From assembly GCA_039935415.1 (NCBI GenBank), contig JBDTKH010000032.1:44830-108829 (forward strand): a stretch of DNA of 64,000 bases. Direction: 5' to 3'. Made by a program: the position numbers and the translations under genes. The notes beneath the pieces are model-generated. The model made no database searches. It saw only the letters and a list, made by a program, of their open reading frames with translations, and was not told the origin of the DNA. Positions 3,382 through 63,502 of the stretch are shown one piece after another; within the stretch, counting starts at the first letter, position 1, and every line of letters starts with the position of its first letter. Source of the stretch: Candidatus Dormiibacterota bacterium (lineage in GTDB: Bacteria > Chloroflexota > Dormibacteria > Dormibacterales > Dormibacteraceae).

Positions 3382-3912
3382 CTAGGTGGCCGCCAGGCGG
3401 CGGCGCAGCTGCTCCAATCGGGCGGCGACACTTGCATCAACCAGGCGGTCTCCGTACTGAAGCTTCAGCCCGCCGAGGATGCGCGGATCGACTACTACAT
3501 CAAGCCGCACTTCCTTGCCCAGGCGGCTCGAGATGTCTTCGGCGACCTGGTGCCGGTCGCTCGTCGAGAGCTCGACCGCGGTCGTCACGGTGGCCCTGAC
3601 GCGACCTACGGCCTCATCGGCCAGGCGCTCGAACTCGTCCTGGATCTCCGCCACGTCTCGGACTCGATTCGATTCGATCAGGAGCATGGCGAAGTTGGTG
3701 GCCTCATCGTCGAAGAGGTGCGGCGCGCCCGACACCAGCGCCATGCGTTGGTCGATCGCGATCGTCGGGTTGGTCAACACCGCGGCCACCTCTGCGTCTG
3801 AGAGCAGCTCGCGAACCTTCTCGAGACGGCGTCCCCAGTCCGCGACCTGGCCCTGCTCCGTGGCCAGCTCGAACACGGCCCGCGCGTACCGCCTAGCGGC
3901 TGCCGTCGCCAC
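3382..3912 (-). CDS. atpH: F1 ATP synthase delta (OSCP) subunit
   Basis: 176 aa, RYARAVFELA N-terminus typical of delta. Position between atpF and atpA. Confidence 0.9.
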   Translation of the reverse strand: MATAAARRYARAVFELATEQGQVADWGRRLEKVRELLSDAEVAAVLTNPTIAIDQRMALVSGAPHLFDDEATNFAMLLIESNRVRDVAEIQDEFERLADEAVGRVRATVTTAVELSTSDRHQVAEDISSRLGKEVRLDVVVDPRILGGLKLQYGDRLVDASVAARLEQLRRRLAAT

Positions 3913-4420: not shown

Positions 4421-4672
4421 CTACTTCGCCGGGACGTTGGCGAGGAACACAAATCCGAAGGCCAGGTTGATGAAGTACATCGCCTCGACGAGTCCCACGA
4501 TGGTGAAGAGCCAGGGGATCATCCTTCCCTGCGCCTCGGGTTGGCGCGCGACACCGCTGATGAAGGCGTTGCCGGCCAACCCGTCGCCGACCGCCGCGCC
4601 GATGGCGCCCAGCCCGATGGCAAGGCCGAATGCCACCAGCGCGCCAGCGAGAACAAGTCCGTGATCTGTCAT
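4421..4672 (-). CDS. atpE: F0 ATP synthase subunit c
   Basis: 83 aa two-helix proteolipid with RQPE loop and GLVEA carboxylate motif. Confidence 0.95.
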
Positions 4673-4681
4673 GTCTTCCTC

Positions 4682-5488
4682 CTAGTGATGTTCATGTTCG
4701 AGACCCTCGCGGGCCGCGCCGAAATAGATGACCGTGAGCAGCATGAAGATGAACGCCTGGATGAACCCGATGAAGATGACGTCGAACGACTTCCAGAGAA
4801 ACAGCAACAACGCGGCGATCACGGTACTTGGAACTGTTCCAAGAGCCGGCAGGTCGATGAACCCGATCTTCGGAAGTACCAGGGTGCCCAGGCTGGCGAT
4901 CAGGCCGATCATCACGGCGCCGGCGAAGATGTTCCCGAAGAGCCGGAGCGCCAGGGTCGCCGGCTTGACGACCTCCTCGAGGATGTTGAACGGTGTGAAG
5001 ACCGCGCGGCCCCAAACAGGCAGCTCGAACGGTTTGGTGAACCGGCGCAGATATCCGCGCCAGCCCAGCACCCGCACGCTGTACCACTGCACGACGCCGA
5101 TCACGACCAGGGCCATCGCAAGCGTCTGGTTGAGGTCGGCGTTGGCCCCATGAAGAACCGGGAAGATGGCAAGCGGGAAGACCTCGATCCAGTTCGCGAC
5201 AAGGATGTAGAGGAAGAGCGTCAGCGCGAGCGGGACCACGAACAATGCGTCGTCCGAGACGTTGGTCTTGATCAGCGAGCGCAACTGGTCATAGCCCCAT
5301 TCGAACACCGCCTGCACCTTGCTCGGCTCGCCCTCCTTGAGCTTGGAGCGAATCCAGAAGGCGCCGGCGAGGGTCACCACGATGGCAAGGGCGGTTGAGA
5401 TGAGGCTGTCGTAGTTGAAGATGCAGAGGGGACCGCAACCCAGGTCGATCGTGGGGTGCGTGCCGATGCTGGTGTCGGCGCGGATCAC
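4682..5488 (-). CDS. atpB: F0 ATP synthase subunit a
   Basis: LALRLFGNIFAG motif with the essential Arg. Start set to GTG 5488..5486, which forms a GTGA overlap with the atpI stop. The track ORF extends to 5563. Confidence 0.9.
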   Translation of the reverse strand: MIRADTSIGTHPTIDLGCGPLCIFNYDSLISTALAIVVTLAGAFWIRSKLKEGEPSKVQAVFEWGYDQLRSLIKTNVSDDALFVVPLALTLFLYILVANWIEVFPLAIFPVLHGANADLNQTLAMALVVIGVVQWYSVRVLGWRGYLRRFTKPFELPVWGRAVFTPFNILEEVVKPATLALRLFGNIFAGAVMIGLIASLGTLVLPKIGFIDLPALGTVPSTVIAALLLFLWKSFDVIFIGFIQAFIFMLLTVIYFGAAREGLEHEHH

Positions 5489-6045: not shown

Positions 6046-7155
6046 CTATCGGGAACCCTGATCCGCCAGCAGGCGCCGCAGGAAGGGCGCGGGGATTCGC
6101 CAGCCCGTGTGCAGGAGGAGATCGGCGGCGACAGTCGAAACCAGGACCGCGCAGGTGGCGATCACGACCGCCAGGATGCGGCCGTGTCCGAGCAGCGTCA
6201 GGCCGACCGCGCCCATCACGGCGCTGGCGGTGTAGAAGACGAAGCAGGTCTGCCGGGGATCCAGGCCGAACGACTGCAGCCGATGGTGAAGGTGGCCGAG
6301 GTCGGCACGCGCCACCGACGTTCCCCGGCGCCGGCGCCTCAGGATCGCCCAGGCCGTGTCGGCGATCGGCACGGCCAGTGCAAGCACCGGCACGGCGAGC
6401 GCGAAGGCCACGGCCACCTTTGCCAGGCCAAGGATCGAGATCACGCCGAGCGCGGTGCCGAGGAAATGCGCGCCCGAGTCGCCCATGAAGATCCTGGCGG
6501 GGTGCCAGTTGAACAGGAGGAAACCTGCGCACGCGCCCGCCAGCGCGCCGCCCAGCTGGACCACCGGGATCTGCCCCAACCCGCCTGCTGCGAGCATCAG
6601 GGTCACGACGACGACGAAGATGACCCCCGCCGCCAGGCCGTCCACGCCGTCCAGGAAGTTGACCGTGTTCTGCATCCCGAGCAGCCAGAACAGGCTGATC
6701 GGGACTGCGAGCAGTCCAAGGTGCACGAGGTGGCCGCCGGGCAGCCCGACGAACGTGATGGTGAAGCCAAAGCCGACAACGGCAACGACCGCCACGACGA
6801 CCTGCAGCCCCAGCTTCACGATCGGGCGGACCGTCCACCGATCGTCCGCGATGAGCAGGATCGTGGCGAGCCCCGACACGATGAGCACTCCCGCGGTCTC
6901 CTTGTAGTCAGGCAGGAAGATCAAGACCGCCGCGGCGAAACCGATGTACATCGCCAGCCCGCCGAGCAATGGGGTCGGCTTGGTGTGGGCATGACGCCCG
7001 CCCGGCTCCGCCACCAGGCCCGTCAGCCGCGAGAGCCGGATCATCAATGGCACGGCCAGGGCGCAGATCGCCGCCGCGACGAGCAGCGGCCACAGGCCGG
7101 GCAGCACGTGCTCGCGGAGGTTGAGGAGGGCGTCCCCTCCGAAGAAATCAGTCAA
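6046..7155 (-). CDS. wecA: MraY/WecA-family (GT4) polyprenyl-phosphate N-acetylhexosamine-1-phosphate transferase
   Basis: Polytopic membrane protein with [10 protein letters not shown] motif. Sits in the rfe/wecA position upstream of atp, as in actinobacteria. Start set to TTG 7155, 5 nt before the glyA stop. The track ORF extends to 7191. Confidence 0.8.
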
Positions 7156-8401
7156 ACGAATAAGGGATGGGGAACTTCCTGCACAGCTCAAGCGCCCGCT
7201 CGTGGATCGAGTCGAGGACGGCCCGGTCGTCGATACGCTCGACCAGGTCGGCGATGCAGTCGGCGATCACCACCATCTCGGCTTCGCGCATGCCGCGCGT
7301 GGTGACCAGCGGAGTGCCGACGCGCACGCCGCTTGGGTTGAACTTAGAGGCCTCGTCGAACGGGATCGAGTTGCGGTTGAGCGTGATGCCGACGGTGTCG
7401 GCCACGTCCTGGACCTGCTTCCCGCTCCGCTTCTGCGCGCGGAGGTCGATCAGCATCAGGTGGTTGTCCGTGCCGCCGCTTACCAGCCGCAGCCCGCGCT
7501 CCATCAAGCGGTTCGCGAGCGCTTTCGCGTTGACCACGACCTGCTTCGCATACACCTTGAAGTCAGGCTTCAATGCCTCGCCGAAGCAAACCGCCTTGGC
7601 GGCGATCGCATGCATCAGCGGCCCGCCCTGGATGCCGGGGAAGACCGCCGAGTCGATGGCTTTCTGCCAGTCGTTGCGGCACAGGATGATCGCGCCCCAC
7701 GCGCCGCGCAGCGTCTTCTGCGTCGTGGTTGTGGTGATGTCCGCGAACGGGACCGGTGACGGGTACTGGCCACCGGCGACAAGGCCTGCGACGTGCGCCA
7801 TGTCAACGAAGAAAGTCGCGCCCACCGAGTCGGCGATCTCGCGCATGCGGGCCCAGTCCACGATCCGCGAGTAGGCGGAGAACCCGCCGATGATCATCTT
7901 GGGCCGCACCTCCTGCGCGAGCTTCTCCATCGCGTCGTAGTCAATGAGCTCGGTCTCGCGGTTCACGCCGTACGAGTGGATCTCGTAGAGCTTCCCACTG
8001 AAGTTCGCCGGGCTGCCGTGGGTGAGGTGACCCCCGGCCGACAGGTCCATGCCCATGACCCGATCGCCGGGCTGGCACACGGCCATGTACACGGCCGCAT
8101 TGGCCTGCGAGCCGGCGTGCGGCTGCACGTTGACGTAGTCCGCGCCGAACAGCTCCTTGGCGCGCTCGACGGCGAGGGTCTCGATCTTGTCGATCACTTC
8201 TCCAGTGCCGCCGTAGTAGCGCCGTCCGGGGTAGCCCTCGGCGTACTTGTTGGTCAGGAGCGTGCCGAGCGCCTCGAGGATGGCCGGGCTCGTCAGGTTC
8301 TCGGACGCGATCAGCTCCAGCGTCTCGGACTGCCGCCGGTACTCCTTGCGGATGAGATCGGCGATCTCCGGGTCCGTCTGGTCGAGCGCCCGGAAGGACA
8401 T
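7148..8401 (-). CDS. glyA: Serine hydroxymethyltransferase
   Basis: [13 protein letters not shown]-lysine motif and [13 protein letters not shown]. Start set to ATG 8401 ([13 protein letters not shown]). Confidence 0.95.
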
Positions 8402-21255: not shown

Positions 21256-21331
21256 GCCGACGTAGCTCAGCTGGCAGAGCAGCCGCCTCGTAAGTGGCAG
21301 GTCGTGGGTTCGAATCCCACCGTCGGCTCCA
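21256..21331 (+). tRNA. tRNA-Thr (anticodon CGU)
   Basis: Cloverleaf folded by hand: acceptor GCCGACG/CGTCGGC, D-arm GCTC..GAGC, anticodon stem GCCGC/GTGGC with loop CTCGTAA, T-arm GTGGG TTCGAAT CCCAC, encoded CCA. Confidence 0.9.
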
Positions 21332-21335
21332 ATCA

Positions 21336-21530
21336 AGTATGAGAAGGAACCGGCGGTTCCAACTGAAGTATGAGAAGGAACCGGCGGTTCCTTCTCATCG
21401 ACCGGGCGGCTCGCCGCCGGGTCTGCTCATCTTCCAGGATGGATTTTCGGAATAGTCTCTCCTGGCCACGCTGGGAGTTGAGTTGGACAAAGTTGCAGCC
21501 GGGTTGAACCCGGCTGCCCTGCCACGCTGG
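21336..21530 (+). repeat. Structured intergenic element, copy A
   Basis: Shares the 5' hairpin atgagaaggaacc-ggc-ggttccttctcat, a second GC hairpin, the middle block ctcatcttccaggatggattttcggaatagt, gacaaagt plus hairpin gcagccggg-ttgaa-cccggctgc, and the gccacgctgg tail with the four other copies. Carries a 25-nt tandem duplication at its 5' end. Confidence 0.85.
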
Positions 21531-21540
21531 AAGGAGTTTG

Positions 21541-21989
21541 ATGCCGTACGACGAACCCGCTGACCTCATCGGAAGTTGCGCGGCGACGCTGGACACGCTT
21601 GGCCTTCTACTTGGCGACATCAGCGACGAGGTTCCGCCGGCGGATGGGTCTTGGACGATCGCCGAGATCCTCAACCACCTGGGCGAGACCGAGCGCCGCT
21701 ACCTCGGGCGGGTGCGGCGCATGCGCCGCCAGCTATACCCGCGTATGAAGATCATGCCCGACGACGACTACACGAAGCTGCCGGCCCTCAAGGCGTGGAC
21801 GATGTTCTACGAGTTGCGCCGCGACACCTCCGGGTGCTCCGGACGCTGAAGCCCGCAGAGTGGCAGAGATCAGGCACGCTGACCCCCGTCGGCGAGATCA
21901 CGATCGACGGGCTGGTTCGTCACATGGCGGCGCACGACGCCATGCACACGGCGCAGGTCGCCCGGCGGTTGAGCGGCCGCCAGGGCTAG
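21541..21989 (+). pseudogene. DinB-family (DinB_2-like) protein, reading frame broken by an apparent 1-nt indel near 21811-21835
   Basis: N-terminal half is in the frame of ORF 21538..21849 (WTIAEILNHLGETE). C-terminal half is in the frame of ORF 21576..21989 (LRVLRTLKPAEWQRSG..HMAAHDAMHTAQ). Together they make one DinB-like protein. Confidence 0.65.
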
Positions 21990-23075
21990 CGAGGCGAGCA
22001 GCGCCGCCTCCGCCAGCAGGATCGGCACCGCCAGGACCAGCAGGGCGAGCTCCAGGAGCGCGTAACCGACGACCAGCAGGCCGACCTGCCACGGCGACGC
22101 CTGCGCGCGCAGGACGAGCCAGCCTGCTACCACGAGCATCGCGAAATCCTGGAAGCCGACGTACGGAGTGAAGAGAAGCGACGCGGTGATGCCTGCCGCG
22201 ATCGGCACGCCCGACGTGCCGTTGCGGTTGCGCCAGGCCGCGACCACCGCGGTCACCACCACCACCGCCTGGACCACGTACAGCTGCGGGCCGAGCCCGA
22301 GCGGCCCCGCGATCGCGTAACGGCGCGTCGGCTCCCACTGCGAGGCGAGGCCGAGCACGTCGCGGTAGCGCTGAATGCCGTCGGGGCCCAGCATGGCCAG
22401 GGCGATCACGGCCAGGACCCCCGAGGCGACGAACCAGGCTCCGAACAGCCGCATGCGACCCGACACGAGCAGGCACAGGGGCACGAGAAGTGCGATCTGC
22501 GGCTTGATCGCGACCAGGCTCAGGACGATCCCGGCCGCGACGTTCCGGTCTCTTTCCGCGAGCCACCAGCACGCCGCCACGGCGGCCGCGACCAGCGCCA
22601 CGGGCTGGCCGACCATGACACCGAACGCAACCGGGAACAGCCCCAGCCAGACGGCGAGGTGCGCCGCGCGGGTGAGCCGGCCGCCGGGCGCCACCAAATA
22701 CCAGGCCAGCAGCAGCGCCGCCAGAAGCAGGCCGGTCCATAGCACGATGGCGACGTCGAACGGCAGCAGGGTGAATGGGGTCGCGAGCCAGACCAGCGGC
22801 GGGGGGTTGAGGAACGGCGACCAGTAGAAGCCCGCGCCCAACCCCTCCACGACGCTCTTCTGCGCCACGAGGTCGTAGAGATGGCCGTACCCGTGGCGAA
22901 GGCCGGTCAGCGCCGCGCCGTAGATGAGCCGGAAGTCGTTCCGCACGCGGTACTCAGGGATGTAGGTCACCACCGCCGCGTACACGTCGAACGCGGTCAG
23001 CAGGAAGCCGCCCCACAGCCCGGCCGTGCCCCACAGTCGGGTGCGCTGCCGCAGGTAGTTGATCACCGCCTGCAA
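21870..23075 (-). CDS. GT87/DUF2029-family polytopic membrane glycosyltransferase
   Basis: 401 aa, more than 9 TM segments, typical DUF2029 layout. TTG start overlaps the terminator T-tract (alternative GTG at 23066). 3' end overlaps the convergent DinB gene by 120 nt. Confidence 0.65.
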   Translation of the reverse strand: MQAVINYLRQRTRLWGTAGLWGGFLLTAFDVYAAVVTYIPEYRVRNDFRLIYGAALTGLRHGYGHLYDLVAQKSVVEGLGAGFYWSPFLNPPPLVWLATPFTLLPFDVAIVLWTGLLLAALLLAWYLVAPGGRLTRAAHLAVWLGLFPVAFGVMVGQPVALVAAAVAACWWLAERDRNVAAGIVLSLVAIKPQIALLVPLCLLVSGRMRLFGAWFVASGVLAVIALAMLGPDGIQRYRDVLGLASQWEPTRRYAIAGPLGLGPQLYVVQAVVVVTAVVAAWRNRNGTSGVPIAAGITASLLFTPYVGFQDFAMLVVAGWLVLRAQASPWQVGLLVVGYALLELALLVLAVPILLAEAALLASLALAAAQPPGDLRRVHGVVRRHVTNQPVDRDLADGGQRA

Positions 23076-23108
23076 AAAATAAGGGCTCGGACCTGAGTCC
23101 GAGCCTTT
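23074..23108 (-). terminator. Rho-independent terminator downstream of dnaK and element copy B
   Basis: Minus strand reads GGCUCGGAC-UCAG-GUCCGAGCC followed by CUUAUUUUUU. Confidence 0.8.
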
Positions 23109-23110
23109 TA

Positions 23111-23333
23111 CACCAGCGTGGCCTGGGCGGCGGGGTTCAACCCGGCCGCGACTTTGTCACCTAGAACACCCCGACGTGACCTGAAGTGACCTCTAAATCA
23201 AGTCCCATCCATATGCCGGAAAGAGTGCGCCGGCCCTTGTCACCGCGCTGCGCTCTCGATTCGGCATGAGGGCCGGGTCCCCGTCGCGAAGCGACCGGGC
23301 GATGAGAGGGAACCATCTGGCTCCCCCTCATAC
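23111..23333 (-). repeat. Structured intergenic element, copy B
   Basis: Reverse complement aligns to copies A, C, D and E (tatgagggggag..ttccctctcatcg, ..gacaaagtcgcggccgggttgaaccccgccgc..gccacgctggtg). Contains an extra ~55-nt insert after hairpin 2. Starts 3 nt after the dnaK stop. Confidence 0.85.
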
Positions 23334-32351: not shown

Positions 32352-32357
32352 TCAACC

Positions 32358-32387
32358 AGAGGGGGCCGGCCATAACCGGCCCCCTCT
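32358..32387 (+). terminator. 12-bp GC hairpin after the ABC operon (no U-tract)
   Basis: agagggggccgg-ccataa-ccggccccctct, 7 nt after the stop codon and directly upstream of element copy C. Confidence 0.4.
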
Positions 32388-32392
32388 AAGAA

Positions 32393-32560
32393 ATATGAGA
32401 GGAAACGGCGTTTCCTCTCATCGCGCGTGCGGCTTCTCCGCACGCGCTGCTCTCTTTCATGTGGATTGGATATTCAGGAATAGTTTCTCCTCGCGAAGTC
32501 TGGGCTGAGCAAGGACAAAGTTGCGGCCGAGGTGAAGTCGGCCGCCCTGCCACGCTGGTG
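32393..32560 (+). repeat. Structured intergenic element, copy C
   Basis: atgagaggaaac-ggc-gtttcctctcat; gcgcgtgcgg-cttct-ccgcacgcgc; ..ggatattcaggaatagtttctcct..; gacaaagttgcggccga-ggtgaag-tcggccgc; ctgccacgctggtg. Confidence 0.85.
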
Positions 32561-32583
32561 AAACCGTCAAGCTACCCCTGGCA

Positions 32584-35293: not shown

Positions 35294-35683
35294 ATGGCCT
35301 CCGAAGTCCTCTGTGGCAGGTGCGGCACCCTCCTGACCAACCCCAACGCGCCCTGTCCCCGATGCGGGTCCTCCGCCTCAGGTCGCTACCAGGGCCCGGC
35401 GGTGGGGGCGCGGAAGAACCCGCTCGCCGCAGCCGCGCTCGCGATCATCCCAGGATGCGGCCACTTCTACCTCGGCCACAACGTGAAGGGCCTCGCCCTG
35501 CTCGTGGGCATCGGAGGCTTTCAGCTGTTCGACACAGGCCTCGACCTCACCGGGATCGGCGCCCTCCTCGGAGTGCCTCTCGAGCTTGGGCCCGGCGCGC
35601 TCTGGGTCTACAGCATCGTCGACGCGTATCGGACCGCCAAGCACATGGAGGCCGCCGCCGCGGTTCCGCCGTACCCAGCCTAG
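35294..35683 (+). CDS. Zinc-ribbon plus two-TM membrane protein
   Basis: MASEVLCGRCGTLLTNPNAPCPRCG, then hydrophobic segments. ATG at 35294, divergent from the acyl-CoA dehydrogenase gene. Confidence 0.6.
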   Translation: MASEVLCGRCGTLLTNPNAPCPRCGSSASGRYQGPAVGARKNPLAAAALAIIPGCGHFYLGHNVKGLALLVGIGGFQLFDTGLDLTGIGALLGVPLELGPGALWVYSIVDAYRTAKHMEAAAAVPPYPA

Positions 35684-35849
35684 ATATGAGCGGAAACTGC
35701 GTTTTCGCTCATCGCCCGGTCGGCTTCGCCGACGAGGCTGATCACCTTCCTGTTGGTTGGATTAATTGGACTGGTTGCTCCTGGCGACGCTTGGGTGGTT
35801 TGAGAACAGTTGCGGCCGAGGTGAACTCGGCCGCCCCGCCACGCTGGTG
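35684..35849 (+). repeat. Structured intergenic element, copy D
   Basis: Begins at the nucleotide after the TAG stop. atgagcggaaac-tgc-gttttcgctcat (one G.U); ggtcggc-ttc-gccgac; ..gcggccgag-gtgaa-ctcggccgc; cgccacgctggtg. Ends 5 nt before the stop of the convergent gene. Confidence 0.85.
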
Positions 35850-35854
35850 AAGCG

Positions 35855-48436: not shown

Positions 48437-48813
48437 TGGTGGAGGCGGCGGGAGTTGAACCCGCGTCCGAAGCAGCGTCCCCCGGGATCTCTACGAGCGT
48501 GTCCAGGATTTTGGTCCTCGCCTGGCGGCTCCTCCTGACGGGATCCGCTTCAGCCAGCCGCGGTGAATGTCCTGGCTCAGGGCCGTGGCGCCCCCGGGCC
48601 AGCGATCCGGTCTATGTGATACCGCTCCCCAGTCCGCCGGATTGACCGGGGGCAGCACCCGGGATCTAAGTCCCGGGACTCACGTCTCTACTGCTTACGC
48701 AGCGAGGGCGAAAGTGTTGGTCTTGTTGGCGTTTGTAAACGCTGCGCTGTAACGCACACGCCTTCGGCTCGCAATCCCGAAGCTCAACTGCCCCGTCGAG
48801 ACCGGACGCCCCC
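48437..48813 (-). ncRNA. ssrA: tmRNA (SsrA), tag peptide ANKTNTFALAA
   Basis: Minus strand 5' GGGGGCGUCCGGUCUCGACGGGG... and 3' ...GGACGCGGGUUCAACUCCCGCCGCCUCCACCA. Internal ORF GCC AAC AAG ACC AAC ACU UUC GCC CUC GCU GCG UAA. smpB lies nearby. Confidence 0.92.
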
Positions 48814-61872: not shown

Positions 61873-62549
61873 TCGTTACTACTACTCAGAGCGCGCGTGG
61901 CGCGAGGACCGAACAGCGCCTGACCCAATCGTAGCATCGTGCTTCCGGCGGCCAGCGCCGCCTCGAAGTCGACGCTCATCCCCATCGAAAGCACCGGCAG
62001 CTTCCTGCCCAGGCGCTGCTCGGCGTCGTCGCGCAGTATGCGCAGGTCGTCGAACGCGGGCCTGGGGTCGCGGTGCGAGGGGCCCATCGCCATCAGCCCC
62101 TGGAGGTCGAGCAGGCCTGCCACCTGCTCGATGAGCTCCGGCGCGGCGGACGGGTAGACGCCCGACTTCTGCGTCTCGCGGGCCACGTTCACCTCGACCA
62201 GGACCTGCTGGGTCGGGGCGAGCCGGGCGATCGCTTCGGCGACGTGCAGTGAGTCGACGGTCTGGATGAGCGCGAACTTTCCCGCGGCCAGGCGCACCTT
62301 GTTGCTTTGAAGGTGGCCGATCAGGTGCCAGAGCGCTGGCGGAACGTCGTCCATCTTGGCGAGCGCCTCGTGCACCCGGTTCTCTCCGAGCATGTTGAGG
62401 CCGGCGGCCAGCGCTTCCTTACAGGCATCCACCCCGAAGCCCTTGGTGACGGCGACGATGGCGACCTCGTCGGGATTCCTCCCCGTGGCGGCGATCCGGG
62501 CGCTCACGCGGGCGAGCCTCTCGACTACTGACGCGGCCTCGGTCGTCAT
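61866..62549 (-). CDS. yggS: YggS-family pyridoxal-phosphate homeostasis protein
   Basis: ATG 62549 (ATGA overlap with the pgeF stop). AVTKGF PLP-lysine motif, MGMSVDFEAA. The upstream part of the 342-aa track ORF is rejected. Confidence 0.88.
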   Translation of the reverse strand: MTTEAASVVERLARVSARIAATGRNPDEVAIVAVTKGFGVDACKEALAAGLNMLGENRVHEALAKMDDVPPALWHLIGHLQSNKVRLAAGKFALIQTVDSLHVAEAIARLAPTQQVLVEVNVARETQKSGVYPSAAPELIEQVAGLLDLQGLMAMGPSHRDPRPAFDDLRILRDDAEQRLGRKLPVLSMGMSVDFEAALAAGSTMLRLGQALFGPRATRALSSSNEC

Positions 62550-63256
62550 CGGAGCGCGACGATCGCGCCAAACCGGGTGCCGTCGGGGTCGCCCCGGTGT
62601 GAGGGAAGCACGGACGACTCCTTGGTGCAAAGGCCGAGCACGTGAACCTCGGACACCCCCGCCTCTTCGAGCTGAGCTCGGTTGGCCGCCGCCAGGTCGA
62701 GGAGGAATCGATCGTCGGGCCCGCTGGTCACGAATCGCGCGTCGAATTGAGACGCCACGTCCTCGCCGACCTCGTAGCACTTGCCGCAGATACCGGGGCC
62801 GATGCCCACGCGCATGTCCTTTGGCTCGGAGCCATACTCGCGTGCCATCGTCTCGACCACCGCGCCCGCGATGCCCGCTTGCGTGCCCCGCCACCCCGCG
62901 TGCGCGAGCCCAAGGGCGCGGTGCACGGGGTCCCAGAGCACGATCGGGTAGCAGTCCGCGAACGTGGCGAACAGCGCGACGCCCTTGCGGTCGGTCACCA
63001 GGCCGTCGGTGCGCTGCACCACGTCCCCCGGCTCATCAACCCGGGCCACCGTCGTGCCGTGGACCGCGCCGGCGGTCGTGAGCTCCATGTCGATCCCGAG
63101 TAGGCGCGCGAAGGCGCGACGTGACGCCAAAACAGGGACGGGGTCTGGCGCGTGCGTGAGCCCGACGGATCCGATGGCCATGGTGGAGAAGCCGTGCACA
63201 AAGCCGGCATCGTCGGCGAGCGCGGGGATCCTGAGCACGACCGGCGCGACACTCAC
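62546..63256 (-). CDS. pgeF: Peptidoglycan editing factor PgeF / YfiH (laccase-domain, Cu-oxidase_4) protein
   Basis: ADCYPIVLWDP, HAGWRG and CGKCYEVG motifs. Confidence 0.88.
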   Translation of the reverse strand: MSVAPVVLRIPALADDAGFVHGFSTMAIGSVGLTHAPDPVPVLASRRAFARLLGIDMELTTAGAVHGTTVARVDEPGDVVQRTDGLVTDRKGVALFATFADCYPIVLWDPVHRALGLAHAGWRGTQAGIAGAVVETMAREYGSEPKDMRVGIGPGICGKCYEVGEDVASQFDARFVTSGPDDRFLLDLAAANRAQLEEAGVSEVHVLGLCTKESSVLPSHRGDPDGTRFGAIVALR

Positions 63257-63290
63257 GTGTTTGAGCTTAGACGTCCGATGTGGAGATCAT

Positions 63291-63502
63291 TACCAGCGTC
63301 GCAGCGGCGGCCAGGTTCAACCCGGCCGCGACTTTGTCAAACCAGTCTGCCCCCGTCGCAAGGAGTAACTACTCCGAAAATCCCATGCCGGAAGATGAGC
63401 AGACTCGGCGGCGCAGCCGCTGGGTCGATGCAATCAGTGAGTTGCGGTAGCGCGTCCAACTCGCGCCTGGCGCGCAGAAGGAACCGCTGGTTCCTTCTCA
63501 TA
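63291..63502 (-). repeat. Structured intergenic element, copy E
   Basis: Reverse complement reads tatgagaaggaacc-agc-ggttccttct..; ..ctgctcatcttccggcatgggattttcggagtagttactcct..; gacaaagtcgcggccggg-ttgaa-cctggccgc (one G.U); ..gcgacgctggta. Starts 5 nt after the nrdR stop. Confidence 0.85.

Follow-up and report, generated by a model that had tools for sequence, protein, structure and literature searches.

A structured mobile repeat at gene ends in uncultured soil bacteria, with a candidate triple helix on its first hairpin

Results

Five copies of one element in the spacers of a 64-kb window

The window examined in this study is a 64,000-nt stretch of a Candidatus Dormiibacterota contig (JBDTKH010000032.1, assembly GCA_039935415.1). 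Five of its intergenic spacers, which follow a tRNA-Thr gene (copy A), dnaK (copy B), a gene for a Peripla_BP_6 binding protein (copy C), a Zn-ribbon/TM ORF (copy D) and nrdR (copy E), are occupied by similar sequences of 165-225 nt. A sequence-only reading of the same DNA had described them as five copies of an unrecognised structured intergenic family, and our searches confirm that observation. An nhmmer profile of the five copies returned exactly five full-length matches in the window, with E from 1e-38 to 1e-49, together with one partial duplicate of 25-30 nt of the 5′ arm (Table 1). In addition, the consensus of the third hairpin (H3), searched with up to 3 mismatches, occurs only in these five places, whereas 0 occurrences are expected by chance. 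The layout that had been described is present in all five copies and consists of a 5′ hairpin (H1), a GC hairpin (H2), a semi-conserved middle, GACAAAGU plus a 9-bp hairpin (H3), and a GCSACGCUGG tail. Two optional modules, which that reading did not recognise, were identified in copies B and E. In Table 1 and below, numbers with the prefix L denote related loci recovered from other genomes and metagenomes.

Table 1. Positions of the five copies, their parts and one unoccupied site, numbered from the first letter of the window.
Feature	Positions	Strand	Profile match	Description
Copy A, partial duplicate	21336-21365	+	21335-21364	Partial tandem duplicate of the 5′ end (AGTATGAGAAGGAACCGGCGGTTCC plus AACTG), directly after tRNA-Thr (21256-21331); absent from the syntenic locus L072
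Copy A, full element	21369-21530	+	21365-21533	From TATGAG to GCCACGCTGG; ends at the AAGGAG Shine-Dalgarno (21531-21536) of a DinB_2 gene whose ATG is at 21541
Copy A, H1	21370-21398	+		13-bp hairpin ATGAGAAGGAACC / GGC / GGTTCCTTCTCAT; the 5′ arm is the purine strand
Copy A, H2	21401-21422	+		GC-rich hairpin whose sequence varies freely between copies
Copy A, candidate third strand	21426-21435	+		CTCATCTTCC, a pyrimidine tract that mirrors the H1 purine arm GAGAAGGAAC (candidate major-groove triplex)
Copy A, middle region	21436-21493	+		GGATGGATTTTCGGAATAGT, CTCCTGGC-CAC-GCTGGGAG (possible hairpin with no covariation support) and GACAAAGT
Copy A, H3	21495-21517	+		GCAGCCGGG / TTGAA / CCCGGCTGC; the most sequence-conserved module; family loop consensus KTRAA
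Copy A, tail	21518-21530	+		CCTGCCACGCTGG
Copy B	23111-23332	-	23337-23107	Optional module 2 after H2; starts 4 nt after the dnaK stop (23339-23337); followed by a canonical hairpin-plus-T-run terminator at 23105-23074, so it lies inside the dnaK 3′ UTR
Copy C	32394-32561	+	32389-32564	H1 32395-32421, third strand 32450-58, H3 32523-45; between the binding-protein gene and the next co-directional ORF
Copy D	35685-35850	+	35681-35853	Starts 1 nt after the TAG (35681-83) of a Zn-ribbon/TM ORF
Copy E	63290-63502	-	63505-63287	Optional module 1 inserted in the 3′ arm of H1; starts 5 nt after the nrdR stop (63510-08); the same site is occupied in L076 and L084
Unoccupied orthologous site	62465-62555	-		The Cu-oxidase_4 stop overlaps the next start (ATGA); in relatives L084 and L076 a full element sits exactly here

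Distribution of the family

A search of genomes returned 19 hits, 12 of them in Dormibacterota-named MAGs, and 15 of the 19 loci hold full-length copies. At least 120 metagenome contigs were also recovered. The profile found 155 hits in these sequences, of which 132 are full length and 117 are unique, at about 56 independent loci. All of the related loci were ascertained with a 3′-end pattern. So far the family has been found almost only in Candidatus Dormibacterota and in matching soil-metagenome contigs, a restriction that the sequence-only reading missed. No matches to phages or plasmids were found.

Assignment to a known Rfam family had been specified in advance as an outcome that would overturn the claim of a new family, and it did not occur. 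At the gathering thresholds of Rfam 15, the whole window yields only tmRNA and tRNA. Permissive scans of copies A and B and of 10 further loci yield only chance-level hits, namely BASRCI414 at 28.7 and 21.1 bits against a gathering score of 270, on inconsistent strands.

Three covarying hairpins

Covariation had likewise been proposed beforehand as a criterion for the structure, and H1, H2 and H3 all covary strongly. In the MAFFT/RNAalifold alignment, 97.3% of cells are paired, against 85.0% in shuffles and 37-49% in slid registers, and 230 cells have both sides changed, against 60.5 +/- 5.9 in shuffles, with 0 of 500 shuffles reaching the observed value. Because this alignment already gave clear counts, a covariance model was not built. 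In H1, AU/GC/CG swaps occur at four positions. In H2, 16-29 sequences have both sides changed at 5 of the 6 pairs, and the outermost pair (columns 37-72) has none. Therefore, the claim that pairing is preserved through compensatory changes is supported.

However, the argument that had been drawn from wobble pairs does not generalise. At least five G.U pairs and no A.C pairs had been reported and taken as a sign of selection on the RNA, whereas in 74 copies the H1/H2/H3 stems hold 8 G.U and 12 A.C cells. Only a weak energetic preference for the sense strand remains (-1.7 kcal/mol), and the folded form could therefore be single-stranded DNA or H-DNA rather than RNA.

Several further pairings were considered and are not claimed here. 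A fourth hairpin in the middle region around GCSACGC is visible in many single-sequence folds, but the arms of each copy pair no better than arms swapped between copies (5.03 against 4.88 pairs, and -9.4 against -8.7 kcal/mol, p = 0.23), so that it could not be supported by covariation. No covariation was found between the two GCSACG motifs. A pseudoknot between the H1 loop and the bases after the pyrimidine tract is plausible in two subfamilies (CCGGA/TCCGG and CUCGG/CCGGG) but absent in a third. No Watson-Crick partner of the pyrimidine tract is consistent across subfamilies. The element also does not have the form of an intrinsic terminator, in which a GC-rich hairpin is followed directly by a U-run, because H3 is followed by CCNNNGCSACGCTGG, copy B has a separate canonical terminator downstream, and only H2 plus the pyrimidine tract of copy C passes a loose scan.

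At first glance, the element might encode a small protein translationally coupled to the upstream gene, as proposed for mycobacterial MIRUs. The 5′ end reads ATGA, the H3 loop almost always contains TGA or TAA, and in copy A the two are in frame. We took the reading frame as the test of this possibility, and the test refutes it. Across 95 copies, the loop stop falls in frames 0, 1 and 2 in 32, 36 and 27 cases, only 11 ORFs end at the loop stop, and indels in loops and modules shift the frame freely. There is thus no conserved ORF, and the sequence-only reading had likewise seen no associated ORF. MIRUs are 46-101-bp tandem units with small ORFs that sit in operon spacers in the direction of the flanking genes, with ends that overlap the stop and start codons of the neighbouring genes. 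The present element resembles them in this placement, but its units are mostly single and have no conserved reading frame.

Coupling between H1 and the downstream pyrimidine tract

The strongest mutual information that is not explained by Watson-Crick pairing is between H1 column 7 and column 78 of the pyrimidine tract that follows H2. This coupling had been missed by the sequence-only reading. The tract follows the purine arm of H1 by the parallel rule G->C, A->T (U in RNA), which holds at 71% of the variable positions 4-8 in register, against 27-45% when shifted. None of 5000 permutations reached the observed value (z about 10, or about 5 at haplotype level). The adjusted mutual information between arm and tract is 0.63, against 0.12-0.18 with H2, which lies between them. 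Moreover, the 5′ arm of H1 (GAGRRGRAA) stays purine at columns 8-11, which never flip to pyrimidine, whereas H2 pairs flip freely, and a mini-variant keeps H1 directly followed by the tract without H2.

A homopurine strand within a Watson-Crick helix and a U/C-rich strand parallel to it that obeys U.A-U and C.G-C are features of a pyrimidine-motif major-groove triple helix, and both are found here, the second with statistical support only. The exceptions at position 4 are A opposite C-G or A-U, and both are documented non-canonical triples (PMC7583470). However, the rule is imperfect, U opposite G-C is frequent, and the independent H1 types number only about 10-17. Base triples were not modelled, and physical formation of the triplex was not measured. 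Among the major-groove triple helices reviewed (PMC7583470), which include ENE/MALAT1-type stability elements and the SAM-II and preQ1-II/III riboswitch pseudoknots, a U/C-rich strand likewise runs parallel to a purine strand, with U.A-U and C.G-C triples and occasional A.C-G or A.A-U, and in ENEs its role is to protect an RNA end. In the present element, by contrast, the purine strand is one arm of a simple terminal hairpin, and the third strand returns after a variable hairpin insert. There would be about 8 triples, roughly half of them C.G-C, whereas bacterial examples have 3-6. No ligand or poly(A) partner is present, and there is no sequence similarity.

Position and orientation relative to genes

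Random orientation relative to flanking genes had been named as a result that would count against the proposed co-orientation. The larger set shows a bias instead, although it is not absolute and our gene calls are crude, being based on codon-position GC. We counted 50 copies between genes that both run in the sense of the element against 11 between genes that both run opposite to it, and 39 convergent against 10 divergent contexts. Per locus, the numbers are 22 against 7 and 12 against 5. A stop triplet lies in the 10 nt upstream in 37 of 51 loci, against 3-10 of 51 in control windows. The claim that the element is co-oriented with the upstream gene and starts just 3′ of it therefore generalises to about 56 loci. 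The ends of the element may also take part in the signals of the neighbouring genes. In L084 and L076, the upstream stop is the TGA of the element and the downstream start is the GTG of the tail, and at one locus with 15 orthologues the start codon follows CTGGTGA by 4-6 nt.

These observations could be explained if the element were primarily a host-functional cis-acting RNA module, such as a 3′-UTR stabiliser or exonuclease barrier, an intercistronic coupling element, or the source of a 3′-UTR-derived small RNA, that is kept by selection at each locus, with mobility incidental or ancient. In addition to the orientation bias and the stop-codon adjacency, this reading is favoured by retention at the same junction in 15 related genomes and at the nrdR and tRNA-Thr loci, by structure-preserving evolution, by the survival of the H3-plus-tail module in otherwise deleted copies, by the position of copy B between a stop codon and a canonical terminator, and by the loci in which the tail supplies the ribosome-binding site or the start codon. 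However, the flanking genes (dnaK, nrdR, a tRNA, a transporter, a GH57-like gene) have no common function, orthologous sites are empty in close relatives with no sign of replacement, copies decay by deletion, one copy sits inside an ORF, some copies sit in antisense or divergent contexts, and the 5′ half is swapped wholesale between near-identical loci. We therefore regard this explanation as possible but unlikely. Persistence of many copies at the same orthologous site across several genomes fits long persistence or host benefit as well as selfish spread.

Empty sites and flanking duplications

Related genomes show both empty and filled sites. The window itself is empty at one site where L084 and L076 are filled (Table 1), and L033, L102 and L088 are empty where L067, L029 and L129 are filled. 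The copy in L017 lies inside an ORF that we read from its N-terminus as GH57-like, with a perfect 53-nt flanking duplication, and L011 and L125 hold that stretch once. Fifteen copies at 11 loci have flanking repeats that score above the 99.5th percentile of controls, and in 13 of them (at least 9 loci) repeats of 16-80 nt lie within 0-8 nt of the 5′ end and 0-19 nt of the 3′ end. Over all loci the flanking repeats range from about 4 to 80 nt, and most copies show none detectable. The earlier statement that there is no consistent target-site duplication is thus true for duplications of fixed length, but the absence of target duplications is not supported. Decayed and 5′-truncated copies were also found.

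Duplications of variable length are a feature of SINEs, and we considered whether the element is a SINE-like, RNA-mediated retroelement. In this view, read-through transcripts from the upstream gene would be trimmed to the element, the 5′ triplex hairpin and the 3′ hairpin would define and protect the ends, and a reverse transcriptase encoded elsewhere would copy the RNA into nicked DNA. This reading is favoured by the variable duplications with a few filler bases at both junctions, by the absence of terminal inverted repeats and by the conserved 3′ module. Dependence on host transcription would fit the orientation bias, and the recent insertion in L017 carries about 15 extra bases after the tail that could be 3′ transduction. 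About 9 copies are 5′-truncated against at most 2 that are 3′-truncated, but this asymmetry is biased by the 3′-end pattern used to find the loci, and we retain it only as a hint that leaves the matter undecided. However, there is no A-rich or other simple 3′ tail, no internal promoter is evident, no partner reverse transcriptase was found or looked for, and an RNA intermediate was not examined. Furthermore, target-primed insertion does not by itself explain why new copies are co-oriented with the target genes, and no bacterial precedent is known to us. Eukaryotic SINEs and other non-autonomous non-LTR retroelements share with the present element the lack of inverted ends, the variable duplications, a conserved 3′ module and 5′-truncated copies, and they depend on transcription. 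We consider this reading possible but unlikely.

A relic of a single-strand-DNA transposon of the IS200/IS605 or RAYT type (a PATE- or REPIN-like element), moved by a HUH tyrosine transposase that recognises the terminal hairpins, appears still less likely. Hairpins do lie near both ends without terminal inverted repeats, and head-to-tail arrays exist. On the opposite strand, H3 plus GCGACG resembles a CGTC-tagged REP, and REPs also lie mostly downstream of genes, between co-directional and convergent ORFs (PMC3733652). However, the IS200/IS605 and RAYT families make no target duplication, whereas duplications of 16-80 nt are seen here. PATEs have similar subterminal hairpins at both ends, insert 3′ of a fixed tetra- or pentanucleotide and are oriented by the replication strand, whereas H1 and H3 are unrelated in sequence, the 5′ flanks share only a stop codon and A/G-rich filler, and copies lie on both strands within 64 kb, following genes rather than a replication strand. 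About half of the tails read GCCACG instead of GCGACG, which gives CGTG instead of CGTC on the opposite strand. The element also does not fit an integron attC site, because the ends show no R′′/R′ cores (RYYYAAC ... GTTRRRY) and the flanking genes are housekeeping genes on both strands, not a cassette array next to an integrase.

Discussion

We consider the five spacers to be copies of a family of small (about 105-250 nt), non-coding, non-autonomous mobile elements, and we hold this explanation with reasonable though not full confidence. In this view, copies accumulate at gene ends, usually 0-10 nt after the stop codon of a co-oriented gene, and would be transcribed as part of the 3′ UTR of that gene or of the spacer between two cistrons. 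The sense strand folds into three covarying hairpins, of which H1 is a homopurine/homopyrimidine hairpin at the very 5′ end. The pyrimidine tract after H2 most likely lies in the major groove of H1, parallel to the purine arm, which would give about 8 stacked base triples (C.G-C and U.A-U, with A.C-G or A.A-U at position 4). H2 and the two optional modules are dispensable branches, and H3 plus the GCSACG tail is the sequence-conserved 3′ module. New insertions duplicate a variable length of target DNA, from about 4 to 80 nt, which points to fill-in of staggered breaks or to target-primed copying, not to a classical transposase with a fixed stagger. How the element moves is unknown, and an RNA intermediate is possible. 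The element carries TGA at its 5′ end and GGTGA/GTG at its 3′ end, and these can replace the stop of the upstream gene and the ribosome-binding site or start of the downstream gene, which helps explain why operon junctions tolerate it.

Our data demonstrate the family, the hairpins, the orientation, the adjacency to stop codons, gain and loss, the flanking duplications and the statistical coupling between H1 and the tract. By contrast, the physical triple helix, transcription, any protective or coupling role in the mRNA, and the nature of the mobilising activity and of the intermediate are inferences. No transcription data were examined, and no mobilising gene was identified, although none could be sought at genome scale. 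The earlier interpretation is partly supported. Of the three roles that it offered, which also included a 3′-UTR-derived sRNA or stability element, the non-autonomous mobile element is now directly supported by the empty and filled sites and by the flanking duplications, and a REP/BIME-like role in the transcript remains compatible with the data.

Dormibacterota are an uncultured but abundant soil phylum. Five copies in 64 kb implies a few hundred per genome, so this repeat, which has not been described, could shape operon junctions, mRNA ends and assembly quality across the phylum. Two of its features are unusual for bacterial repeats, namely target duplications of widely varying length, which no classical bacterial transposase produces, and a three-way covariation that fits a long major-groove triple helix on a terminal hairpin. 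If the triplex is real, it provides a natural and easily synthesised model for C.G-C-rich RNA or DNA triplexes and a candidate exonuclease-resistant cap in bacteria. If the element moves through RNA, it would be a kind of mobile element that we do not know to have been described in bacteria. The boldest form of this idea, which we consider improbable although it is not excluded, is a bacterial counterpart of a SINE, that is, a promoter-less, non-coding retroelement that rides on read-through transcripts of host genes. Its RNA would be capped at the 5′ end by a pyrimidine-motif triple helix of about 8 triples, longer than any of the bacterial riboswitch triple helices tabulated in the review (PMC7583470), its conserved 3′ hairpin would be recognised by a reverse transcriptase encoded elsewhere, and target-primed copying would explain the duplications of 4-80 nt. 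At the least, the family is a ready marker for Dormibacterota contigs and for mis-binned contigs.

Bacterial MITEs and other structured intergenic repeats (Correia/NEMIS, ERIC, RUP, BOX, Bacillus cereus bcr1; reviewed in PMC3184786 and PMC2229807) are also small, non-coding, non-autonomous, multi-copy and intergenic, with presence/absence polymorphism. They fold into stable RNA when transcribed, are divided into modular subfamilies, as in BOX, and are expected to affect the expression of flanking genes. However, MITEs have terminal inverted repeats, whereas the 5′ end TATGAGRRGRAACC and the 3′ end GCSACGCTGG of the present element share no inverted complementarity, in agreement with the earlier statement that such repeats are lacking. 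MITEs also generate duplications of a fixed, family-specific length (TA, TTTAT and so on), which is not observed here, and the strong transcription-sense orientation bias and the sharp 5′ adjacency to stop codons set the present element apart from these repeats.

REP/BIME elements, including the GTAG- and CGTC-tagged superfamilies (PMC3733652), are high-copy, GC-rich hairpins of mosaic composition that lie mostly after coding regions, between co-directional and convergent genes, are co-transcribed and are thought to stabilise upstream mRNA. A REP is a 20-40-bp palindrome ending in GTAG or CGTC, whereas the present unit is 165-250 nt with three different hairpins and variable target duplications, and CGTC lies 5-6 nt from the H3 stem on the opposite strand. 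The CGTC families have a stem of 8-9 bp with A-T pairs at the first and second positions, a loop of 4-5 nt, a CCA-like tail and mostly head-to-head dimers. The H3 stem is 9 bp with a 5-nt loop, but G-C is the commonest pair at all nine positions (A-U in only 1-9 of 74 copies), and units are single or head-to-tail. No link to a RAYT gene is known, although the proteins of the loci were not screened for one. The H3-plus-tail module alone, however, looks REP-like and survives as solo copies.

The repeat family in the window

Inspection of the five stretches shows that each of them has the same layout. The sequence (T)ATGAG opens a 10-13-bp hairpin (H1), which is followed by CATCG and a GC-rich hairpin (H2), and then by CTG and a pyrimidine tract, CTC....TTCC. 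A semi-conserved middle and GACAAAGT precede a 9-bp hairpin (H3) with the loop KTRAA, and the element ends in the tail CC-NNN-GCSACGCTGG. A profile built from the five copies finds exactly these five in the 64-kb window, with E from 1e-38 to 1e-49, together with the partial duplicate of the 5′ arm in front of copy A. Moreover, the H3 consensus with up to three mismatches occurs nowhere else in the window, where 0 matches are expected by chance. Therefore, the observation made in the sequence-only reading is real. The upstream genes are also as that reading stated, namely tRNA-Thr, dnaK, a periplasmic binding protein, a Zn-ribbon/TM ORF and nrdR. Its interpretation, however, is only partly supported, as described below.

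Copy B is directly followed by a canonical intrinsic terminator (GGCTCGGAC-TCAG-GTCCGAGCC and a T-run), and it therefore lies inside the dnaK 3′ UTR; this genome thus uses ordinary terminators, and the element is not one. In copy C, H2 plus the pyrimidine tract passes a loose scan for intrinsic terminators (a GC hairpin followed by CTCTCTTT), and the tract could have a second role in T-rich subfamilies. Copy C is also the only copy in the window that is separated from its gene by another structure, a perfect 12-bp hairpin (AGAGGGGGCCGG-CCATAA-CCGGCCCCCTCT) located between the stop codon of the binding-protein gene and the element.

Coordinates of features in the window and in the retrieved contigs (L numbers)
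Sequence	Position	Strand	Feature
Window	21371-21475	-	Sub-threshold hit to BASRCI414
Window	23074-23105	-	Intrinsic terminator after copy B
Window	32355-32388	+	12-bp hairpin before copy C
Window	32423-32458	+	H2 plus pyrimidine tract of copy C
Window	48437-48813	-	tmRNA gene
Window	62465-62555		Empty site, Cu-oxidase_4 stop overlapping the next start
L010	4340-4625		Junction with three copies of the start of the downstream gene (also L133)
L100	~3640-3900		Mini-variant after a small peptide gene
L101	1179-1247	+	Sub-threshold hit to BASRCI414
L125	~7130-7390		Mini-variant after a small peptide gene
L130	~4430-4690		Mini-variant after a small peptide gene

Distribution of the family

An exact pattern for H3 plus the tail was found at 19 places among 185,579 species-representative genomes. 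Twelve of these places are in MAGs named Dormibacterota, and 15 of the 19 loci hold full-length copies. The remaining genome hits are soil MAGs labelled Chloroflexi/Chloroflexota, Nitrosotalea, Sulfotelmatobacter and Verrucomicrobiia, plus chance hits to the tail only. Full elements are carried by L011 (labelled Nitrosotalea), L016 (Sulfotelmatobacter) and L006 (Verrucomicrobiia, a 166-kb contig), although the MAGs of these genome-collection contigs are assigned to other phyla. However, L011 is 84-92% identical, over the aligned flanks, to the Dormibacterota contig L017, and at least that label is therefore a binning error; the other two labels were not resolved. A looser pattern hit more than 120 soil-metagenome contigs. 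All relatives were ascertained through a 3′-end pattern, and no complete genome was analysed. Over 958 kb of retrieved DNA, the profile gives 155 hits; with the five copies of the window, 132 are full length and 117 are unique, with lengths of 137-253 nt, and clustering by flanks gives about 56 independent loci. No match was found in viral contigs or in plasmids, and a full-text literature search found no paper that describes repeats in Dormibacterota. The window itself is syntenic, at 70-85% identity, with three metagenome contigs, and its assignment to Dormibacterota is an inference from the distribution of the element.

Anatomy of the element

The core is about 165-175 nt, and there are two optional inserts. 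Module 1, which is present in copy E, is about 40 nt (GCGCGCAAGCGGCGA.GAGGATGGGACTTACTGATTG), splits the 3′ arm of H1 two to three pairs from its base, and looks like an internal duplicate of H2 plus the middle. Module 2, which is present in copy B, is a hairpin of about 50 nt located after H2. A mini-variant of about 105 nt lacks H2 and most of the middle but keeps H1, the pyrimidine tract, CCTCC...GGAGG, GACAAAGT, H3 and the tail, and this defines the minimal unit. In three contigs (L100, L125 and L130), the mini-variant follows a tiny gene encoding a lysine/alanine-rich peptide (MAKKKAAKKPAAKKAAKK...) and its terminator-like hairpin.

The element has no conserved reading frame, because the 5′ ATG and the stop-like triplet in the H3 loop fall in the three relative frames 32, 36 and 27 times. 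The H3 loop is almost always GTGAA, GTAAA, TTGAA or TTAAA, and so it always contains TGA or TAA. We have no explanation for these G<->A changes, which keep a stop triplet although no reading frame is conserved.

Hairpins

Preservation of the stems was examined in 74 core copies, for which RNAalifold predicts H1, H2 and H3. In these helices, 97.3% of cells are standard pairs, against 85.0% in column shuffles and 37-49% when the 3′ partners are slid by 1-3 columns. Furthermore, 230 cells have changes on both sides, against 60.5 +/- 5.9 in shuffles, and 0 of 500 shuffles reach the observed value. Almost all variation is double (AU<->GC<->CG), and wobble intermediates are rare. The sequence-only reading had argued from G.U pairs, in the absence of A.C pairs, that selection acts on the RNA. 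However, we count 8 G.U and 12 A.C cells across the three helices, and this argument therefore does not hold up. The sense strand does fold slightly better than the antisense strand as RNA, by -1.7 kcal/mol for whole elements and -1.9 for the middle, and in 62-70% of copies, although this is weak evidence because the copies are related. At first glance, a hairpin around the internal GCSACGC motif also appears in many single folds, but the arms of each copy pair no better than arms swapped between copies. Therefore, we treat this motif as conserved sequence and not as a proven helix.

A three-way covariation consistent with a triple helix

The 5′ arm of H1 is a purine run, GAG-RRGR-AA, and the tract after H2 varies together with it. 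The relation is not Watson-Crick complementarity but a mirror, in which, read in the same direction, G goes with C and A goes with T.

Pairings of the H1 5′ arm with the pyrimidine tract
H1 5′ arm	Tract after H2
GAGAGGAAA	CTCTCCTTCC
GAGCGGAAA	CTCACCTTCC
GAGCGAAAA	CTCACTTTCC
GAGGGAAAA	CTCCCATTCC
GAGAAGGAA	CTCATCTTCC
GAGAAGGGA	CTCATCCTCC

After the true base pairs, the highest mutual information in the alignment is between H1 column 7 and tract column 78. At the variable positions 4-8, the rule holds in 335 of 475 cells (71%) in register, against 27-45% in registers shifted by 1-3. None of 5000 permutations of tracts among copies reaches the observed value (z about 10), and the same holds when each distinct arm/tract pair is counted once (137 of 205 cells, z about 5). 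Because the copies are phylogenetically related, these permutation p-values overstate independence, and about 10-17 H1 types carry the signal. However, the coupling is not linkage, because the adjusted mutual information between arm and tract is 0.63 but only 0.12-0.18 between either of them and H2, which lies physically between them. Moreover, the 5′ strand of H1 stays purine at columns 8-11, where only AU<->GC changes and no flips occur, whereas H2 pairs flip freely. The main exception to the rule is position 4, where the tract has A opposite a C-G or an A-U pair.

According to a review of RNA triple helices (PMC7583470), a U/C-rich third strand binds parallel to the purine strand through Hoogsteen pairs, and A.C-G and A.A-U are documented non-canonical triples. 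The bacterial examples in its table are riboswitches, with two canonical U.A-U triples plus one to four non-canonical ones. The topology of the element also fits, in that the tract starts at the base of H1, where the 3′ arm leaves the helix, and runs towards the loop. H2 and the modules are variable inserts in the connecting loop, and the mini-variant joins arm and tract directly. Therefore, we read H1 plus the tract as a hairpin clamped by about 8 major-groove triples. This reading is an inference, base triples were not modelled, and the same rule would hold for single-stranded DNA or for H-DNA. In addition, the frequent U opposite G-C shows that the fit is imperfect. 

Genomic context

Random orientation of genome-wide copies relative to the flanking genes had been named in advance as an outcome that would count against the family, and it was not observed among the copies retrieved here. 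According to gene calls that were made heuristically from codon-position GC and are therefore crude, 50 copies lie between two genes that both point the same way as the element, and 11 lie between two genes that both point the other way. A further 39 copies lie between convergent genes, against 10 between divergent genes. Per independent locus, the counts are 22 against 7 and 12 against 5. Several of the opposite cases nevertheless have a stop codon just upstream in the sense of the element, and the bias is thus probably understated.

A stop triplet lies in the 10 nt before the element in 37 of 51 loci, whereas in windows 15-60 nt further upstream the count is 3-10 of 51. In some loci, the upstream gene stops at the TGA of the element itself. 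The 3′ end lies within 0-17 nt of the next gene in many loci. In the best-sampled locus, the start codon follows CTGGTGA by 4-6 nt, so the tail must serve as the ribosome-binding site.

Evidence for mobility

Empty and filled sites were found among related contigs. At the empty site in the window, the Cu-oxidase_4 stop overlaps the start of the next gene (ATGA), and in the syntenic contigs L084 and L076 a full element sits exactly there, with the TGA of the element as the upstream stop and the GTG of the tail as the downstream start. Similarly, L033 is empty where L067 and L029 are filled, and L102 and L088 are empty where L129 is filled; in each case, the site is directly after the stop codon.

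In L017, a second copy lies inside the 5′ end of an ORF whose N-terminus (MKPIHVAFVWHMHQPYY) looks like a GH57 glycoside hydrolase, an identity that is our reading and was not searched. This copy is flanked by a perfect 53-nt direct repeat that includes the start codon, so the gene is rebuilt downstream, and the close relatives L011 and L125 hold that stretch only once. The 5′ end of an ORF with a GH57-like N-terminus (MKPIHVAFVWHMHQP.., likewise our reading) is an insertion hot spot in L011, L017, L027, L048, L056, L082, L087, L125, L139 and L025. This one gene start has copies upstream in sense, upstream in antisense (L139, L025 and L087) and inside the ORF (L017 and L056), each with its own flanking duplication.

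Local alignment of 5′ against 3′ flanks puts 15 copies, at 11 loci, above the 99.5th percentile of mismatched-locus controls. In 13 of them (at least 9 loci), the repeats are 16-80 nt long and lie within 0-8 nt of the 5′ end and 0-19 nt of the 3′ end. By exact match, 11 copies have repeats of at least 13 nt, while the longest in 382 control pairs is 12 nt. In L010 and L133, the junction between the upstream and downstream genes is intact and overlapping (ATGA), and it is followed by three successive copies of the first 29-45 nt of the downstream gene, with the element lying between the second and third copies.

Head-to-tail arrays occur in L006/L062/L077, in L043 (four copies) and in L101. Decayed copies occur too, with internal deletions in L109, L041 and L131, and with 5′-truncated copies that keep H3 plus the tail. 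At one junction sampled in 15 related genomes, the 3′ half of the element and the flanks are about 90% conserved, but the whole 5′ half (H1 type, modules, H2 and tract) is exchanged between close relatives. This implies recombination between family members rather than slow change in place.

Probable mode of action

The analysis demonstrates a high-copy, non-coding element, restricted almost entirely to one phylum, that is gained and lost at gene junctions, sits mostly in the sense of the upstream gene, carries three structure-constrained hairpins and a coupled pyrimidine tract, and duplicates a variable length of target on insertion. What follows is inferred from these observations. The element would have no promoter of its own and would be transcribed by read-through, although expression was not examined. 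In the transcript, the triplex-clamped H1 would sit right behind the stop codon and the very stable H3 near the 3′ end. We believe that their most likely role is as barriers to exonucleases, much as is proposed for REP hairpins (PMC3733652) and for eukaryotic and viral triple-helix stability elements (PMC7583470). The TGA at the 5′ end and the GGTGA/GTG at the 3′ end would let the element replace a stop/start junction without breaking an operon. Neither the responsible enzyme nor the nature of the intermediate, RNA or DNA, was identified here. However, the variable duplications argue against a transposase with a fixed stagger, and they favour either fill-in and joining at staggered breaks or target-primed copying from an RNA or single-stranded copy.

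Comparison with described elements

In role and location, the element is closest to REP/BIME elements and to structured MITE-like repeats such as BOX, ERIC and bcr1, and in its junction-bridging ends it resembles MIRUs. However, it is not a member of any of these, because it has no inverted ends, makes no fixed-length duplication, has no 20-40-bp tagged palindrome unit and has no conserved mini-ORF; it also lacks attC cores. Variable duplications, a conserved 3′ module and truncated 5′ ends recall SINEs. Nevertheless, the excess of 5′ truncation is biased by the manner in which the loci were found and leaves that comparison undecided, and no reverse transcriptase is known here. Therefore, we place the element among the bacterial interspersed intergenic mobile repeats, as one that was not previously described, with two features that could move it further from known kinds if confirmed.

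Assignment to a known RNA family, which had been stipulated as grounds for rejecting the family as unrecognised, was not obtained, because no Rfam family matches at gathering or permissive thresholds. Sub-threshold hits to the Brucella sRNA family BASRCI414 were found in the window and in L101, with 28.7 and 21.1 bits against a gathering score of 270, but their strand and position are inconsistent, and we judge them to be chance hits on GC hairpins. The window also contains a complete tmRNA gene (134.5 bits) with the predicted tag peptide ANKTNTFALAA, which is unrelated to the repeat family.
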